64,000 nucleotides of DNA, taken from contig OZ025796.1 in the NCBI GenBank assembly GCA_964019425.1, forward strand, positions 434,001 through 498,000. The letters are read 5' to 3'. The DNA is from Flectonema sp. DT1601 (taxonomy: Eukaryota). This document shows, piece after piece, positions 1,719 through 60,494 of the stretch. Under the pieces are notes generated by a model. That model had not been told where the DNA came from. It saw only the letters and a program-made list of their open reading frames with translations, and searched no databases. The first letter of the stretch is position 1, and each line of letters begins with the position of its first letter. Both the position numbers and the translations under genes were made by a program.

Positions 1719-1828
1719 GCAATTAACAAGTATTGTAAGAACGAAAAAGAATGTTGGCAGCACACGTAAACTTTCTTTAGCTTTATCAGTTTAAGTCGGT
1801 TCACGGGTTTCGTGCACACAACCAATTC
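1719..1828 (+). mobile_element. Solo/non-autonomous derivative of the YR retrotransposon (repeat A plus an internally deleted repeat B)
   Basis: Near-identical to repeat A (36838-36922), followed by the start and the end (CCAATTC) of repeat B; T-tracts on both sides. Confidence 0.9.
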
Positions 1829-10847: not shown

Positions 10848-10902
10848 GTGTGGTCTCTTTTTAATTATCCACCAGGTCGTCAAGTAGATATTTTTTTCGT
10901 CC

Positions 10903-10935
<33 letters not shown>

Positions 10936-31692: not shown

Positions 31693-32001
31693 TGTTCGCC
31701 CTCAATGGAGGTGAGAAATTTTCGGTCGGTTTTGTACTCTGATTCACATCAATATATAATGTCTGATGGTGTTCCTCCTTAAAGTGGGAAGGTTGTCTAG
31801 TTTTGACATTTTCGTGGGCACGAAACCGTGAACCGATATGGAAAGGTTTACGTGTGCTGCCAATGCTTCGTCAACTAAAAAAAAAAAATATCTTCGTCGT
31901 TCAATTTCTCAATTAGTTGGCAGTTTTTGTGTTTCCAATTCTAACGAAGTAATTAGTTCTCTTTTTCTTCAGTTATTTCTATTCCCCCTCGACACCTAAC
32001 A

Positions 32002-36804: not shown

Positions 36805-36839
<35 letters not shown>

Positions 36840-36954
36840 ATTTAACAAGTATTGTAAGAACGAAAAAGAATGTTGGCAGCACACGTAAACCTCCTTTAGC
36901 TTTATCAGTTTAAGTCGGTTCACGGTTTCGTGCACAAACAAAAAAACTCACAAA

Positions 36955-37842
36955 ATGTCGAAAGTAGATATCCCACAAGATTTCGACTGGTCAACTGTCG
37001 AGGTGCCTGAGATCCCGGAAGGGGCGCATCCGTCAGCGACAGACCAATGTTGTGTGTTTCCGTTATGCGGAAAAATACATACGGACGGCACGAACTGTCA
37101 CCGATGCGGTGAAATGGGCGAGACGGAATGTCTCAAGTCCCGTTTAGGCAACGACGAAGTCACCCAAGCCAGGTGGTTGCCTGAGGCATCCCAGGAATGG
37201 GTGTGTCCTCCATGTGGGTTTGTGCTCCGGAATGGAGCCCCATATGCAATGCTCGTACCGGAAGGGCGACATTTTAACGCAACGATGCCAGTTGCGGAAA
37301 CAGTTAAGGAATTAACTGTAGTGGAGCGGGTGACGATGGATCCACGTAGGGTCGTCACTTGGGTGGAAAACCTAAAAACCCCGTCTGGCCTGAATTACGT
37401 GTTTGCAGGTTTGCAACAGCGTTACGGCACAGTCAACGGAAAAGCAATCCCGGAGACTGCTGTCGAGGGCGGGGGAGCAGTGTCGCACGAAATGCGGCAC
37501 TTGCTGAGAATGATTGACGGCCTGCTACCGGTCTCCAACAGCTCAGGGCACGTCAGGCAGACGTTGCAAGTGGCGGTGGACCGCATGGAAGATCTGCTGT
37601 TCTCGACGAGGAACAGAAAGATGACCGGCGCCTATGAGGGGTACCTCAAGACGTACGGATACGGGGAGTATACGGAGCGACTAATTGGCCTCGCGATGAA
37701 GGAGACGATGAGAACCGCGCTCCCGGGACAAACCCACGAGGGTGACCAAATGAGCGGTGGCGACCGTAAACGTCATTTTTCCGGGAAGGGAGCTGGAGGA
37801 AATTTTTCCGGGAAGGGAGCTGGAGGAAAGAGGAAGTATTGA
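36955..37842 (+). CDS. ORF1, Gag-like protein with an N-terminal PHD-like Cys finger
   Basis: First ORF inside repeat A; CVFPLC..CHRC..EC..WVCPPC; basic Gly/Lys C-terminus. Confidence 0.8.
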   Translation: MSKVDIPQDFDWSTVEVPEIPEGAHPSATDQCCVFPLCGKIHTDGTNCHRCGEMGETECLKSRLGNDEVTQARWLPEASQEWVCPPCGFVLRNGAPYAMLVPEGRHFNATMPVAETVKELTVVERVTMDPRRVVTWVENLKTPSGLNYVFAGLQQRYGTVNGKAIPETAVEGGGAVSHEMRHLLRMIDGLLPVSNSSGHVRQTLQVAVDRMEDLLFSTRNRKMTGAYEGYLKTYGYGEYTERLIGLAMKETMRTALPGQTHEGDQMSGGDRKRHFSGKGAGGNFSGKGAGGKRKY

Positions 37843-40385
37843 ATGGAGGAAAAACCACACGATGTGTGGGGGCCTGTTCCGGAAGGGACGCAAGGCAAAA
37901 AGCGGATCGGAAGACCGCCAAAAAAATCACTTGCCATAGTGAACTCGGAGAAACTCGAGGAACTCGAGAGTCAGCTGGACCTGACACTGACCGGTTGTTT
38001 CGCCGAATCGACACAAGCATCGATAAGATCGGTAATGCGAAATTGGATCCCCTTCGATGCAACCATATGTGCGATAAAACCGGATATGCCGCCGACGCGG
38101 AGTTTCCTCCTGTGGCTACAGGCAAAGATCAACTTGGGAGAGTTGCAACCACAGTCGGCGAACCAATACTTGGCAAGTTTTCGCTCGGCTGCAATTCCGC
38201 CCACAGCTGCATTCCGGAAGGCCATGACAAGGTCAACAGACGAAAATCAGCGAAGGGAGGGAATGCTGACGAAAATACGCACCAAGGAAGAGATCACGGA
38301 AGTAATCCGTCGACAGGAAGGGATGTATGTAGCGGTGTTGGCCACACAATGGTCTCTGGCGGCGAGATTTATCGACCTGATGCTACTGAGGAGACGGGAC
38401 ATCCGGGAAGTCAGGAACGGTTACCTAATTGGCTTGGTCGGGGGGAAGACCGACAAAACGAGACGAGGTCAATGGATTCTGGTAGCAAAAAATGGCTCTT
38501 TATTCCGCGTGGTGTTGCAATGGTTGGCAACAACGAATGGCGAAATGGTATTCACGGGTTTGAACCGGTCGGGATACAACAGATGGCTGGAAAGACATCT
38601 CGACACCACGAGCCACTACATACGTCACAGTGCACTCACGTATGTCGCGTTGGAGTCGTCGGAACGGGACGCTCAGGCGATGGCGCGGCATGCATCAGGG
38701 ACGTCAACCCAGTTCTACATACCGCCGGAGACTTGGACCTCGACTCGGAATACGATAAAAGCGGCCGCACTACTGCAGTGAAAGCTATCCATGACAGACC
38801 TTTTTGGGCTTCAAAATTGGAAGCAGGATTCCGCATGTACGACTACGCGGAAGGATGGCTAACGGGGATAACTGGAACACGTTGTCCGCGAACATGTTAT
38901 GACGGAACCATATCTGGAATAAGAATGGAACCGGTAAACATGGAACTGCTAGTGGGAAGCTATCCGAACCTGAGAACAAACATGAGATGGATTGCAGATC
39001 CGAACTTTGTCATCCAAGTGATTAACAATTCGCCACAAGAAGACGAATCTGGGATAGGCGCAAAGAATGTCCAATTAAAACCTCATACCGAACGCATGCT
39101 TGAGCTTGGTTTCGCCGAACCATCTCCTAGATCGACGACGAATAGGTTCATGCACTCTGCTTTTCTCATACCGAAAAGTACACCTGGACAATTACGTTTC
39201 ATCCTAAATTGTAAGACTATTAATGAGTTAACAGCTTATACCTCGTTACCGCCATGCAGGCTACCGTCTTACGAAACGATAGTGGAAACCTTGCTACCAC
39301 GTAGGTACGCTTGCGAGTTTGACTTTACATCGTATTTCTTTCAATTCCCGATTCCTGAAAGAATTAGACCGTTGTTCTCTTTTCGAGTAGACAAGAAGAT
39401 CTACCGGATGACACGTCTACCGATGGGGTACAGAGGTGCACCTCAATTAGCCCAGGCTGTTCTTCTGAATCTGATCGAAGATGCAATAGATGGGAGGGAT
39501 GTGTCCGGCATTGGGTGGATTGACAATGCCATCTTTGCGGCGGATGATATACAGGTTCTACAATCGGTTAGAGATAGATTCCGAACTCTATGTCTGAAAT
39601 ATTCAATTACGATAGGCGCGGTCACAGAACCCAACACATACATAATCACATTAGGAATAGAAGCTGACTTGACGAGGAAATGTTGGAAACTAAAGGAAAA
39701 ATGGGTCAAAGCGGTCGCTGAACCAGGGAAAATGATCTTGGACTCACGCGTGAACCTACGACGTAGTTACTGGAAGATTTCGGGAATCATTTTGTGGAGA
39801 CGTCATGCGCTAAGATTACGTCTACACGAGGCGACAGAACTCCTGATGGGAATGTCTGAACTGATGCAGGAAGGCGACCCGAAATCTAAGGTTTTCTGGA
39901 ACACAGCAGTAAAAATCTCAGAGGAGTACATGAACTCTCTTAGGCTCGAGTTCAGGGAGCTTGTGAAGAACGAATGGGTGCGGTGGAATAAGCGTAGCTA
40001 TGAAACAGAAATGACTTTCGTATCTGATGCAAGTACAAAAGCCTGGGCATTTGTAGTGGGAAACTCTTATCGGAGAGGACGCTTCCCGCGCGATATAGTG
40101 AACATGGGGATTTTCGAAAAGGAATTTTTCGCAGTAGTCAAGGCCATTGAATATGTAGTGACAGAGTTAAAACTGCAGAGTTGCAGGGTGACGGGACATG
40201 TAGACAACAAGGGAGTTATCGGTTCGTTGCACCGTGGCTATTCTCTACAACAAAATGTACAACCCATGTTACGGACTATTCATCGACTGTTGGACAGGTC
40301 TAGTTCAGTTCTGCACGTCGAGTACGTGGCGAGCGAGGACAATATTGCTGACAAGCACACTAGACTGGAAGATGAAGCATACTAA
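37839..40385 (+). CDS. Pol: reverse transcriptase plus RNase H, with an N-terminal region overlapping the whole YR ORF in the -1 frame
   Basis: RT motifs FLIPKS..LRFILNC, FDFTSYFFQ, RLPMG, WIDN, LG; RNase H motifs SDAS, EKE, VDN, NIAD. The frame is open from 37770; the true start is uncertain. Confidence 0.93.
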   Translation: MNGGKTTRCVGACSGRDARQKADRKTAKKITCHSELGETRGTRESAGPDTDRLFRRIDTSIDKIGNAKLDPLRCNHMCDKTGYAADAEFPPVATGKDQLGRVATTVGEPILGKFSLGCNSAHSCIPEGHDKVNRRKSAKGGNADENTHQGRDHGSNPSTGRDVCSGVGHTMVSGGEIYRPDATEETGHPGSQERLPNWLGRGEDRQNETRSMDSGSKKWLFIPRGVAMVGNNEWRNGIHGFEPVGIQQMAGKTSRHHEPLHTSQCTHVCRVGVVGTGRSGDGAACIRDVNPVLHTAGDLDLDSEYDKSGRTTAVKAIHDRPFWASKLEAGFRMYDYAEGWLTGITGTRCPRTCYDGTISGIRMEPVNMELLVGSYPNLRTNMRWIADPNFVIQVINNSPQEDESGIGAKNVQLKPHTERMLELGFAEPSPRSTTNRFMHSAFLIPKSTPGQLRFILNCKTINELTAYTSLPPCRLPSYETIVETLLPRRYACEFDFTSYFFQFPIPERIRPLFSFRVDKKIYRMTRLPMGYRGAPQLAQAVLLNLIEDAIDGRDVSGIGWIDNAIFAADDIQVLQSVRDRFRTLCLKYSITIGAVTEPNTYIITLGIEADLTRKCWKLKEKWVKAVAEPGKMILDSRVNLRRSYWKISGIILWRRHALRLRLHEATELLMGMSELMQEGDPKSKVFWNTAVKISEEYMNSLRLEFRELVKNEWVRWNKRSYETEMTFVSDASTKAWAFVVGNSYRRGRFPRDIVNMGIFEKEFFAVVKAIEYVVTELKLQSCRVTGHVDNKGVIGSLHRGYSLQQNVQPMLRTIHRLLDRSSSVLHVEYVASEDNIADKHTRLEDEAY
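37843..38781 (+). CDS. Tyrosine recombinase
   Basis: Catalytic set R (LAARFIDL), K (GGKTD), HxxR (SHYIRH), H (ARH) and Y (TQFY) in the expected order and spacing. Confidence 0.93.
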   Translation: MEEKPHDVWGPVPEGTQGKKRIGRPPKKSLAIVNSEKLEELESQLDLTLTGCFAESTQASIRSVMRNWIPFDATICAIKPDMPPTRSFLLWLQAKINLGELQPQSANQYLASFRSAAIPPTAAFRKAMTRSTDENQRREGMLTKIRTKEEITEVIRRQEGMYVAVLATQWSLAARFIDLMLLRRRDIREVRNGYLIGLVGGKTDKTRRGQWILVAKNGSLFRVVLQWLATTNGEMVFTGLNRSGYNRWLERHLDTTSHYIRHSALTYVALESSERDAQAMARHASGTSTQFYIPPETWTSTRNTIKAAALLQ

Positions 40386-41237
40386 GAAATGATACACAAG
40401 AAGAACGAACACCGCATCGCATCGGTTTATTATCTCATAAAAGACCGTTATTCTCCCAACTTTGATAGATACCATATCAAACTAGACACGACGGCCACGA
40501 ACAATCCACTGGAAAGGGGTCCGGTTTCGTGCACAAACAAAAAATCACAGTGTTATATCAGTATTTTCTGTATAGTTGAAGTTAAAGCCAATTCTTTTTT
40601 GCATTTAACAAGTATTGTAAGAACGAAAAAGAATGTTGGCAGCACACGTAAACCTCCTTTAGCTTTATCAGTTTAAGTCGGTTCACGGTTTCGTGCACAA
40701 ACAAAAAATCACAGTGTTATATCAGTATTTTCTGTATAGTTGAAGTTAAAGCCAATTCTTTTTTTTTCCTCTTTGAGGTGATTATGCCATTATCTCGAAG
40801 TTAAATTACGTATTGCTAACTCCTGTAAGTATTTGTTTCTTTTTAAAGTTTTATTAAATTGCACATCATCTTCTTATGTTGGTATGCAGTTCTTGCTTCC
40901 AACATAATGTTTTTGTTGACGAACCTTGTGAACTGTACTTTTATGTCTTTGATATTTATGGTGTGAAATGTCCTGTTTGAACTCGTCATTGTAGCTATTA
41001 TTGTTATTAATTCACGCGAAAAAAAAAAATAGAAACAAACGGGAAAACTTTTATTCGTGCAAGTGTTCCAGCTTTAGCGAAACGGTTTTTTTTTTTTTTT
41101 TTTTTTTTATAGTATATCACACCTGGTCATACAGCTGAATGCAAAAAAAAAAAAAAAAAAATTCCCCCCTCCCCTTTTTTTTTTTTTTTTTTTAAAATTA
41201 ATCTTCTTGTAGACTACTGATACTAACTAACCTTATT

Positions 41238-49834: not shown

Positions 49835-50829
49835 TAATGATGATAAACTTCTTTCTGGATCCAACTCTAATCCCTTTCTGGGACATGTTGATACCAAAGA
49901 AATCGAGCTTTTTAACAGTCTGAATAGTTCTCGTTGACTTCCCTCTTCTTCTCTTCAAACACTGAGGACTACTTCCCTTCTCTTCACTTCAAGTGTGAAG
50001 ACTCATTTCAGTTGTGAACCACTAATTGAAGGCAGCTCTTTAATGATGATAAACTTCTTTCTGGATCCAACTCTAATCCCTTTCTGGGACATGTTGATAC
50101 CAAAGAAATCGAGCTTTTTAACAGTCTGAATAGTTCTCGTTGACTTCCCTCTTCTCCTCTTCAAACACTGAGGACTACTTCCCTTCTCTTCACTTCAAGT
50201 GTGAAGATTCATTTCAGTTGTGAACCACTAATTGAAGGCAGCTCTTTAATGATGATAAACTTCTTTCTGGATCCAACTCTAATCCCTTTCTGGGACATGT
50301 TGATACCAAAGAAATCGAGCTTTTTAACAGTCTGAATAGTTCTCGTTGACTTCCCTCTTCTCCTCTTCAAACACTGAGGACTACTTCCCTTCTCTTCACT
50401 TCAAGTGTGAAGACTCATTTCAGTTGTGAACCACCAATTGAAGGCAGCTCTTTAATGATGATAAACTTCTTTCTGGATCCAACTCTAATCCCTTTCTGGG
50501 ACATGTTGATACCAAAGAAATCGAGCTTTTTAACAGTCTGAATAGTTCTCGTTGACTTCCCTCTTCTCCTCTTCAAACACTGAGGACTACTTCCCTTCTC
50601 TTCACTTCAAGTGTGAAGATTCATTTCAGTTGTGAACCACTAATTGAAGGCAGCTCTTTAATGATGATAAACTTCTTTCTGGATCCAACTCTAATCCCTT
50701 TCTGGGACATGTTGATACCAAAGAAATCGAGCTTTTTAACAGTCTGAATAGTTCTCGTTGACTTCCCTCTTCTCCTCTTCAAATACTGAGGACTACTTCC
50801 CTTCTCTTCACTACAGGTGTGAAGACTCA
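49835..50829. repeat. Tandem array of a 206-bp unit, ~4.8 near-identical copies
   Basis: Units start at 49835, 50041, 50247, 50453 and 50659. Confidence 0.95.
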
Positions 50830-55334: not shown

Positions 55335-56084
55335 ATGTCTGAACCAGTAGCAGAAGTCCACGAAGAGATTACGGCAATAACAGCTGCGACAGAAGTAGAG
55401 GGAGAGGAAGGAGATGACAACTTAGACATGGAAATCGAAGAAATGAGATTAAAAGTAAAAGAAATGGAAGAACAGCTAAAGGGACAACAAACAGAACTCG
55501 CTGAAGGCGCCGGAGGAGAAGAAGAGTTTGCAGGAGACGATAATGCTTCGGTCTACATTGGACACGTTGACTACGCAGCCACTCCTCAAGAGTTATACAC
55601 TCACTTCGCTGAGTGTGGAACTGTAAAGAGAGTTACCATTCTTTGTGATAAGTGGACAAACCATCCAAAAGGTTTCGCGTACATGGAATTTGAAGATGTC
55701 GCATCTGTCGAAAAGGCAGTCACTCTCAACGACAGCACCTTCTGCGGCCGTAAGATTAAGGTTCTTCCAAAACGGACGAACCTCCCAGGTCACAACAAGG
55801 GACAAAAAGGAAGTAAAAAGGGTTTTAAGTCAGGCCTCAAGGTATGCACACACGACAAGGACCTGTCAAGCAGCCACACTTCTAAATAACTACAAACAGG
55901 GGAGCTGGTGGGATCCAACTTACGGTGGTGGCTTCAGTCCCTATGCCGCAGGAAAGGGTAAAAAGGGAAAGAAGAGTTGGTATGTAAGAAGAAAGGTTTC
56001 AGCTGAACTATTAACAGGTAGGTTAACATTAACAAATAAAACAGGTCTGGCAAGGCTGGTAAAAAGGGATTTAAAGGATGGTAG
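55335..56084 (+). CDS. PABPN1: Nuclear poly(A)-binding protein 2-like RRM protein; exons 55335-55841, 55900-55979, 56045-56084 (208 aa)
   Basis: Acidic coiled coil EIEEMRLKVKEMEE; SVYIGHVDY..HF.CG.VKRVTILCDK..HPKGFAYMEF..IKVLPKRTNLPG; two GT-AG introns. Confidence 0.9.
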
Positions 56085-59077: not shown

Positions 59078-59506
59078 CACCCTTATGGCAACCATGATTT
59101 CTTGTGTCTAACAACCAAAAGTAAAAAAGGAGGAAAAGAAAAAAAAAACTCACCCAATCAAGAAAATTTGATTGATGTTTTTTTATTATTTTCTTTTATA
59201 GTAGGGCAAGGTCCTCGCTGGCACGAGTGTCAGTTTTGTACCCTTACCTTACATTATTCCTTCTCGCAACAAAAATGACCGAGAGAATCAATCCATGCTT
59301 TATCATACAAGACGAACGCCTGCTCTCGTTGAGAGTCTTTCCTTTTGGAGAATCTTAGCAATCCTGTTTTGAAGGAAACTTTTTTTTTCTTCTCTGAAGT
59401 TCTCAAAATAATAAAATGAAAAAAAAAAAAAAGAAAAGGGGATTGAAGTCCAAGACAACTCTTAGCCAGCCAACCAAGGCCAGCTGACTAACAGAATTCG
59501 ACTTTG

Positions 59507-59566
59507 GTAATGATCCTGCTGCAGGTTCACCTACAGCAACCTTGTTACGACTTTTGCTTCTTCTAG
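59507..59566 (-). rRNA. Isolated ~60-nt SSU (18S) rRNA 3'-end fragment
   Basis: The reverse complement reads GAAGCAAAAGTCGTAACAAGGTTGCTGTAGGTGAACCTGCAGCAGGATCATTAC, a euglenozoan-type helix 45 variant. Confidence 0.9.
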
Positions 59567-60494
59567 CTGAGAAATATTGCTGGGATTCGAAACGCTCTAA
59601 GCGGTTGTCCCTTTTTGCGGGTTTTGCGGCTTTGATTTTATTTCTTATTTTTAATTTTTCTTTTTTCCCTCCTTTTTTTTTTTTTTTTATTCACTTCGAG
59701 AAATGGATTTATTGTTCTGCTTTGTCTAAAAAACAAGTAGTAAAGCGGTACCCTTTGAAAACTTTTAATTTTACAACAATGTACACCCGCCTTCCTACTA
59801 CCGCAGTATTGGGGACCCTCAGAAGAACCACCCGGTACTCTTTGAGTGTCTACCTAACCGATTCTCGGTGGTCTGATGGACTTGCTAACTTACTCAAGCG
59901 GGAAAAAAAAAAAAAAAAAAGAAACCAGACCAGCATATTTATTTTGTTGTTTCGATTCCGTATTTATTTTTTATTTTTTATTGTTATTTTTTTTTTATAC
60001 CTACAAACCATTGGTCTAATTTTGTACCGGTTGTCGCACAAACAAAATGAACCTGTGAGTAAGAAAGTAAAAAGTGAAGTTTGTTACTTTTTTTTCTCAT
60101 CCTTCATCTAAGCTATTTATCATTGTTGTTGTTTGCTTTAGTGTGTCTCTCTACGTGACGTATATTTTGATACTTAGCTGAGATGGAGAAAAGGATTCTT
60201 TTTTTTTAAAACTTCCATCAATGAGTTTAAACGAGACAAGAATTTCTTTTGTTTTTAGAAATCTTTTCTTTTTTTTAATAATATAATTCTACTTAAATAG
60301 TCTAATTATAAATTTCACGATCGTGACACACACTTAAAAAAAGAAAAAAAAAACAAAATTTTTGTTTTGCCAAGAAAATCTGCCATCGTTGCAGTGGGAG
60401 TTAGTTTTTTTTTCTTTCTTTTCCTTCATTGATAGCAGTCATAACTTATCTATTTTATAGAGTACCCCTCCTCCCCCACATCCTATAGAATAAG

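Follow-up and report, generated by a model that had tools for sequence, protein, structure and literature searches.

We found that a 64,000-nt stretch of contig OZ025796.1 (assembly GCA_964019425.1, positions 434,001 to 498,000; hereafter the window) contains a tyrosine recombinase (YR) retrotransposon of 3,921 bp, at positions 36838-40758, with the layout of the kinetoplastid VIPER elements. It is real, intact and young, and very probably belongs to the VIPER-like group, in a likely diplonemid. We put at roughly two in three the fuller reading, drawn from sequence analysis, that this multi-copy element would make Gag, a Gag-reverse transcriptase (RT)/ribonuclease H (RNase H) protein by −1 frameshifting and the YR by readthrough or restart, and would integrate as a circle into runs of T. 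The new part is a predicted recoding signal common to this element and to published VIPER and TATE elements, the layout itself being published. Coordinates are collected in Table 1, and statements on cited articles refer throughout to those parts of them that were available.

A first-pass annotation of the window had described three uninterrupted open reading frames (ORFs) in the order gag-YR-RT/RNase H within a compact 3.9-kb element, and terminal repeats arranged A1...B1-A2-B2 with identical pairs. All of this was borne out: the gag, YR and RT frames are open, domains and motifs confirmed the order, and each repeat pair is exact over its full length. Chance would not give perfect repeats as long as 79 and 114 nt, and the window contains no unidentified bases (N). 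The arrangement is that of split direct repeats, as in VIPER. The 23 nt said to be common to the end of A and the start of B (word C) were found exactly at 36923, 40522 and 40686, and nothing with fewer than six mismatches occurs elsewhere in the 64 kb; A2 and B2 thus overlap, and the 3′ end of the element forms a 164-nt period. The element is flanked by T32 on the left and T9 on the right, with no duplication seen beyond these runs. Among the 25 longest inverted repeats only homopolymer-based ones were found, and no DIRS-like inverted terminal repeats. Not covered by the first-pass annotation are the RT frame overlapping all of YR, the slippery site, the likely T-run target and the solo remnant.

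The RT was recognized by Pfam RVT_1 (E 6e-9) and by matches to caulimovirus and murine leukaemia virus RT structures, and its catalytic motif WIDN is of the x-I/L-D-N type instead of YxDD, as in VIPER. The RNase H had no Pfam match and was identified from the motifs SDAS, E, DN and NIAD, which are invariant in 12 aligned proteins. The YR, whose AUG adjoins the gag UGA in the gag frame, matched Pfam Phage_integrase at E 0.052 only; all six catalytic residues are present, invariant across four aligned proteins and in register with XerA (E 0.049). A fold search with a weak model (pLDDT 45) ranked Cre, XerH, lambda Int and XerA at the top, none at E≤0.001. ORF1 had no Pfam match, no CCHC knuckle (CX2CX4HX4C) and no relatives outside its own family among stored proteins, and its structure model (pLDDT 36) was unusable. 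When its Cys spacing was compared with the PHD consensus, Glu was found at the position where PHD has His, and Atlas PHD clusters scored 0.75-0.76 (variant P0022), under the Atlas threshold of 0.9.

Canonical −1 frameshift heptamers follow the rule X_XXY_YYZ. The heptamer A_AAU_UUU near the gag end is the sole in-phase canonical one among the 295 gag codons; it joins two open frames and falls in the last 70 nt of gag, over which the RT frame, in the −1 frame relative to gag, is already open. An in-phase heptamer was found in the last 45 nt of none of 17 host ORFs (chance about 5%). The RT frame contains no stop over the 312 YR codons, against 17 in the third frame, 9 for the −1 frame of gag and 32 for that of RT; synonymous shuffles of YR gave mean −1-frame stop counts of 23.1, 13.8 or 7.6, with zero stops in 0, 0 and 8 of 20,000. 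The linker encoded over YR had no significant matches outside its own copies, and a Flectonema RT frame with a 425-aa extension supports it. Of eight distinct amino-acid changes in the linker among copies, seven are silent in YR (expected 29.5%, or 47.7% for transitions only; P 0.001 or 0.026), which argues that YR is under purifying selection and that the linker need only remain open. Collectively, these data suggest that the RT is likely made by ribosomes slipping one base back near the gag end, a reading that would explain why the VIPER RT frame is open across the recombinase gene. A G-quadruplex as frameshift stimulator was considered and not predicted.

The gag ends of published elements were then read by eye in Additional files 10 and 11 of Ribeiro et al. 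2019 (PMC6681497; 5 of 6 and 2 of 4 parts, respectively). In all eight distinct elements whose gag end was read (five VIPER, three TATE; four different heptamers), a canonical heptamer lies in phase 0-42 nt upstream of the gag stop. Among VIPER these are G_GGA_AAC at 24 nt in Bodo saltans, A_AAA_AAA (21 nt), A_AAA_AAC (33 nt) and G_GGA_AAC (42 nt) in Crithidia fasciculata, and A_AAA_AAC at 27 nt in Trypanosoma cruzi, where four near-identical copies were taken as one; among TATE, A_AAA_AAC at 0 nt in Leishmania braziliensis, A_AAU_UUU at 0 nt in B. saltans and A_AAA_AAC at 30 nt in T. theileri. A stem of 6-11 bp lies 6-7 nt downstream of the heptamer in five of the eight (the T. cruzi stem has 10 bp and the T. 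theileri stem 9 bp, each with the gag stop in its loop). All five VIPER gag genes end UGA-A with the YR frame open straight after; the first YR AUG is immediate only in T. cruzi (UGA AUG) and the present element and lies 35-121 codons further on in the other VIPER, which favours readthrough over restart. At a little short of even odds, all VIPER and TATE, including active T. cruzi VIPER, would use an unreported double-recoding cassette at the gag end, in which −1 frameshifting carries ribosomes across a dual-coded linker of 300 codons to reach RT in VIPER or YR in TATE, with UGA readthrough giving Gag-YR in VIPER. The available parts of PMC6681497, PMC12278014 and the review PMC5009743 make no mention of programmed frameshifting or readthrough, and literature searches gave no such report, with Lorenzi 2006, Vazquez 2000, the Poulter reviews and Repbase outside their scope as places that may hold one; the parts of PMC12440569, PMC11108086 and PMC4006747 at hand added nothing on expression.

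The nearest named proteins belong to Diplonema papillatum (RT 41%, YR 41%) and Flectonema neradi (YR 41%; two RTs), and beyond D. papillatum relatives a further protein search yielded a single unrelated pol. RT/RNase H trees were built with FastTree (134 of the 152 rows, 18 having been removed for their length) and with IQ-TREE (24 chosen rows). In both, the element fell in the same 11-row clade (IQ-TREE 100/99), in which the named rows are D. papillatum and F. neradi, both diplonemid, so the host is likely a diplonemid; protein P0030 of this clade is almost identical to that of D. papillatum. The D. papillatum relatives P0014, P0203 and P0002 carry the annotations eIF3K, Pol polyprotein or aspartic protease, and in P0203 a partial YR and RT share a single frame. 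No DNA of relatives was found in metagenome contigs (RT and YR alignments), viral contigs or prokaryotic genomes. The proposal of an intron-containing euglenozoan host also looks likely, given a 58-nt in-phase GT-AG cis-intron candidate at 55842-55899 in an RRM gene, which we take to be PABP2-like.

Copy counts also agreed with the earlier view of the element as young. An identical Gag was found on 9 contigs and a control host gene (one gene only) on 1, indicating that the family is young; two Gag variants occur on one contig each. The RT-frame cluster comprises eight variants with 97.5-99.9% identity: one is on 5 contigs, one on 3 and the remaining six on a single contig each.

All three insertions in the window (full element, solo remnant and related 5′ fragment) lie after T-runs, and runs of at least six T make up 6.7% of intergenic bases. 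YR crossover cores measure 6-8 bp. A crossover inside the six T at the B1/A2 junction would fit such a core and leave no other duplication. The B/A junction is T-rich in one C. fasciculata VIPER as well, and not in T. cruzi (PMC6681497). Recombination between A1 and A2 would yield solo A-B remnants. An older dispersed repeat is also present in four copies 74-89% alike (1300-1412, 13975-14075, 15860-16009 and 59986-60095, + strand), each with a T-rich 5′ side and a C-like word, and two ending B-like ahead of a T-run. Against A2-B2, the copy at 15.9 kb scored higher than any of 1,000 shuffles (nhmmer E 0.0025), and the other three aligned weakly. These copies are likely SIRE-like solo remnants of a related family.

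Under the published split-repeat model, reverse transcription would jump between A1 and A2 and between B2 and B1, with the internal B1-T6-A2 junction restoring the ends, to give a circle with two B-T6-A junctions; joining both ends of an integrated copy gives the same circle. YR would then cross one of these junctions with a genomic run of at least six T, with no further duplication. If YR can use either junction, some copies should show the permuted order A-B-A...B, and a similar arrangement is tabulated for one L. braziliensis TATE (PMC6681497). A one-junction circle was rejected as replication intermediate, since A1...B1-A2-B2 after one crossover needs two B-A junctions; the first-pass annotation had offered such a circle as a diagnostic, and it would instead be the product of A1 x A2 excision. 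For expression, the element would ride co-directional host transcription. Candidate trans-splice acceptors are provided by AG sites preceded by pyrimidines in A1 (36898, 36907 and 36913), and trans-splicing there together with polyadenylation in B2 would leave an RNA without both element ends. The majority of ribosomes would terminate at the UGA to give Gag of 295 aa, a fraction would slip at A_AAU_UUU through the 340-aa linker into RT/RNase H (product 1,143 aa), and a fraction might pass the UGA in frame to give Gag-YR of 608 aa, or restart at the next AUG.

Several observations weigh against this scheme. A stem 5-9 nt after the heptamer is absent in this copy, the following 43 nt being predicted unpaired, and the heptamer sits across the boundary between the two units of a perfect 27-nt tandem duplication, which may have created it. 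Upstream of the first RT-frame AUG, at 38067, the stop-free stretch is weaker evidence (P 0.001, 0.026 or 0.13, by codon model), so that an internal RT start is possible. The compared VIPER and TATE elements are kin and the comparison was by eye only; the nearby stem is not clear in two of the eight and weak in one, B. saltans TATE ORF1 is short, and the coordinate table of PMC6681497, which has off-by-one errors, hints at other frame layouts in some other copies. The RT/RNase H trees contain no named VIPER or TATE protein and so do not address membership in VIPER/TATE. Strict co-orientation with host genes was rejected, as the related fragment at 31.8 kb runs opposite to them. DIRS-1 complementary DNA was mostly linear and single-stranded and its circle junction not amplifiable (PMC7192593), and the circle accordingly stays a model.

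The same VIPER-like element could instead express YR (AUG 37843) and RT (AUG 38067 or 38835) from their own trans-spliced messenger RNAs, with an incidental heptamer, an account we consider unlikely. Trans-splicing normally makes euglenozoan genes monocistronic (PMC6681497), a proper YR AUG exists both here and in T. cruzi, AG sites with 65% upstream pyrimidines lie at 38120 and 38205, and the missing stimulator stem suits this account too. An RT start at 38835, however, would leave the open frame over YR unexplained, and of the best eight AGs none with at least 55% pyrimidines lies upstream of the YR AUG, whereas the best sites upstream of 16 host ORFs score 0.55-0.95. Furthermore, heptamer and stem recur in published elements, and three related YR gene models begin at internal Met residues, indicating that the first YR AUG is not conserved.

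A second alternative, which we consider improbable, is a diplonemid YR lineage that shares the VIPER layout without being a phylogenetic member, as a separate branch of the DIRS order. The 11-row clade does lie far from other matches (267-381 bits against at most 126 for full-length outsiders), A2 and B2 overlap instead of having the spacer of about 30 nt seen in T. cruzi and C. fasciculata VIPER, and the CCHC knuckle is missing. Against this, the gene order, repeats, frame relations, WIDN and TRLPMGY motifs and gag-end signals are all those of VIPER, and euglenozoan clusters and hepadnavirus P are among the Atlas look-alikes of the relative from D. papillatum, a likeness also reported for VIPER-like RNase H (PMC6681497). 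That the element is recently dead or mis-assembled, its identical repeats and contig counts reflecting assembly or repeated deposits, is very improbable: although the counts come from ENA records with a single host-gene control, variant copies differ at 0-12 residues in a pattern that spares YR, their longest contigs range from 33 kb to 1.45 Mb, truncated and frameshifted variants stand beside intact ones, and the window also contains a solo remnant that has diverged.

Table 1. Features of the element and related sequences in the window.
Feature	Position	Strand	Remark
Solo A-B remnant, SIRE-like	1719..1828	+	A at 96%, then the final bases of B, with about 47 nt lost; flanked by T21 and T9
5′ fragment of related subfamily	31790..31876	−	A shortened, word resembling C, gag start MSKLDN; preceded by T12; nhmmer E 5e-6
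Left T32 run	36806..36837	+	Likely host target tract
Repeat A1, 108 nt	36838..36945	+	Equals A2 exactly; 114 nt identical counting six leading T
Segment C, 23 nt, end of A and start of B	36923..36945	+	gag AUG 9 nt further on
ORF1, 295 aa	36955..37842	+	Gag-like by position only; basic Gly-rich tail
Cys-rich N-terminal segment of ORF1, PHD-finger-like spacing	37048..37215	+	C33, C38, C48, C51, C59, C84, C87; lead only
−1 frame ORF, 871 aa stop to stop	37770..40385	+	Linker of about 340 aa dual-coded over YR, then RT, RNase H
Perfect 27-nt tandem duplication at gag end	37775..37829	+	Each unit a predicted hairpin
In-phase −1 slippery heptamer A_AAU_UUU	37800..37806	+	33 nt before gag UGA; leads into RT frame
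gag UGA, then directly in-frame YR AUG	37840..37845	+	
Tyrosine recombinase, 312 aa	37843..38781	+	R175, K202, H258, R261, H283, Y292
Two predicted hairpins starting 12 nt after UGA	37855..37896	+	z −2.4 to −2.7; candidate readthrough stimulator
RT domain	39168-39614	+	WIDN at 39516
RNase H motifs	40017-40365	+	
Repeat B1, 73 nt	40522..40594	+	Equals B2 exactly; 79 nt identical counting six trailing T
T6 at B1/A2 junction	40595..40600	+	Predicted crossover core
Repeat A2	40601..40708	+	Exact copy of A1
Repeat B2	40686..40758	+	23-nt overlap with A2
Right T9 run	40759..40767	+	

Elsewhere in the window, all 18 host ORFs of at least 150 aa that read as genes are on the + strand, and the single − strand ORF overlaps a + gene. 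At 49835-50829 a unit of 206 nt is repeated in tandem 4.8 times with 98% matches, and the 13 kb at 10848-23912 are homopolymer-rich, with 29-38% GC and no ORF of 150 aa. Further short dispersed repeat families, 74-93% alike, lie at 1967/8163, 5287/6875, 14817/18727, 53834/58868/7817 and 17443/21283/58934. Decayed ribosomal RNA-like pieces at 59240-59900 (− strand) presumably resemble the 18S end, spacer and large-subunit start; Rfam gave no match anywhere in the window. D. papillatum is reported to have scattered ribosomal RNA fragments (PMC10161547).

Being young, intact and 3.9 kb long, with a simple T-run target, the element lends itself to tests of how YR retrotransposons express their overlapping genes and of whether split-repeat elements do pass through a circle. 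If our reading holds, retrovirus-style recoding would operate on euglenozoan ribosomes for a nuclear mobile element, and a compact, T-run-targeting diplonemid family would extend VIPER/TATE beyond kinetoplastids and offer the simplest substrate for studying recoding and the two-junction circle. If transfer were excluded, the VIPER layout would be pushed back towards the diplonemid-kinetoplastid ancestor.

Among known systems, Ngaro/PAT-like elements have split direct repeats in common with the element, and repeat-jumping reverse transcription has been proposed for them. They carry the YR after the RT, whereas here it lies upstream of RT/RNase H. The first-pass annotation had set split repeats, as typical of Ngaro/PAT, against a YR-first order, as typical of VIPER/TATE. 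This contrast is out of date because VIPER and TATE themselves carry A1...B1-A2-B2 repeats and the gag-YR-RT/RNase H order (PMC6681497), restated together with the lack of target duplication in PMC12278014. The combination could not be upheld as novel, that layout being published, and assignment to a VIPER/TATE-type lineage stands on layout and motifs. In D. papillatum, 'TATE DNA transposon' ORFs were reported (PMC10161547) only as ORFs resembling TATE, and the parts available describe neither a complete element nor repeats or a target; this species encodes the closest named RT and YR, which may or may not be among those ORFs. Our literature search found no diplonemid VIPER paper.

TATE of L. 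braziliensis, T. theileri and B. saltans shares gene order, split repeats and, by eye, the gag-end heptamer. Its ORF2, of 1.7-3.3 kb, lies in the −1 frame after gag, in contrast to the 0.94-kb YR in the gag frame here, so that a slip would yield Gag-YR and not Gag-RT. Its RT motifs are LPTGARW and L/MIDN rather than TRLPMGY and WIDN, and the L. braziliensis element inserts in telomeric repeats, whereas ours lies in an intergenic T-run. We take the spacing HW...YDS...Q...DCG to be that of Ulp1/C48 cysteine proteases. The N-terminal part of TATE ORF2 reads so by eye (PMC6681497, Additional file 11), and SPOR is the only match named for this ORF in the available parts of that article.

VIPER is the closest counterpart. 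SIRE, which is A2-B2 of VIPER (PMC6681497), has its analogue in the remnant at 1719-1828, which lacks about 47 nt of B and the exclusive middle segment of T. cruzi SIRE. VIPER of T. cruzi, C. fasciculata and B. saltans (VIPER-like superfamily, order DIRS), of which some T. cruzi copies are potentially active (PMC6681497), differs in several respects: the present element is shorter than T. cruzi VIPER (3.9 kb, with A of 108 and B of 73 nt against 173 and 219), has a 23-nt A2/B2 overlap where T. cruzi and C. fasciculata have the spacer, and combines a likely diplonemid host with a PHD-like Cys cluster instead of CCHC, no clear stem after the heptamer and a T6 junction. The lack of CCHC is not decisive, since several published VIPER also lack it in Gag (PMC6681497). 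In both, the gene order is the same and the paired split repeats within an element are 100% identical, a YR ORF of about 0.9-1 kb follows the gag stop directly in the gag frame, and the RT frame opens before or near that stop and spans the YR. By eye, the RT motifs DF..YFFQ, TRLPMGY and WIDN of C. fasciculata and T. cruzi VIPER are those of the element, while those of TATE differ, and VIPER, which has no target duplication, as may hold for the present element, likewise has a heptamer near the gag stop by eye and, in T. cruzi, the same UGA AUG junction.

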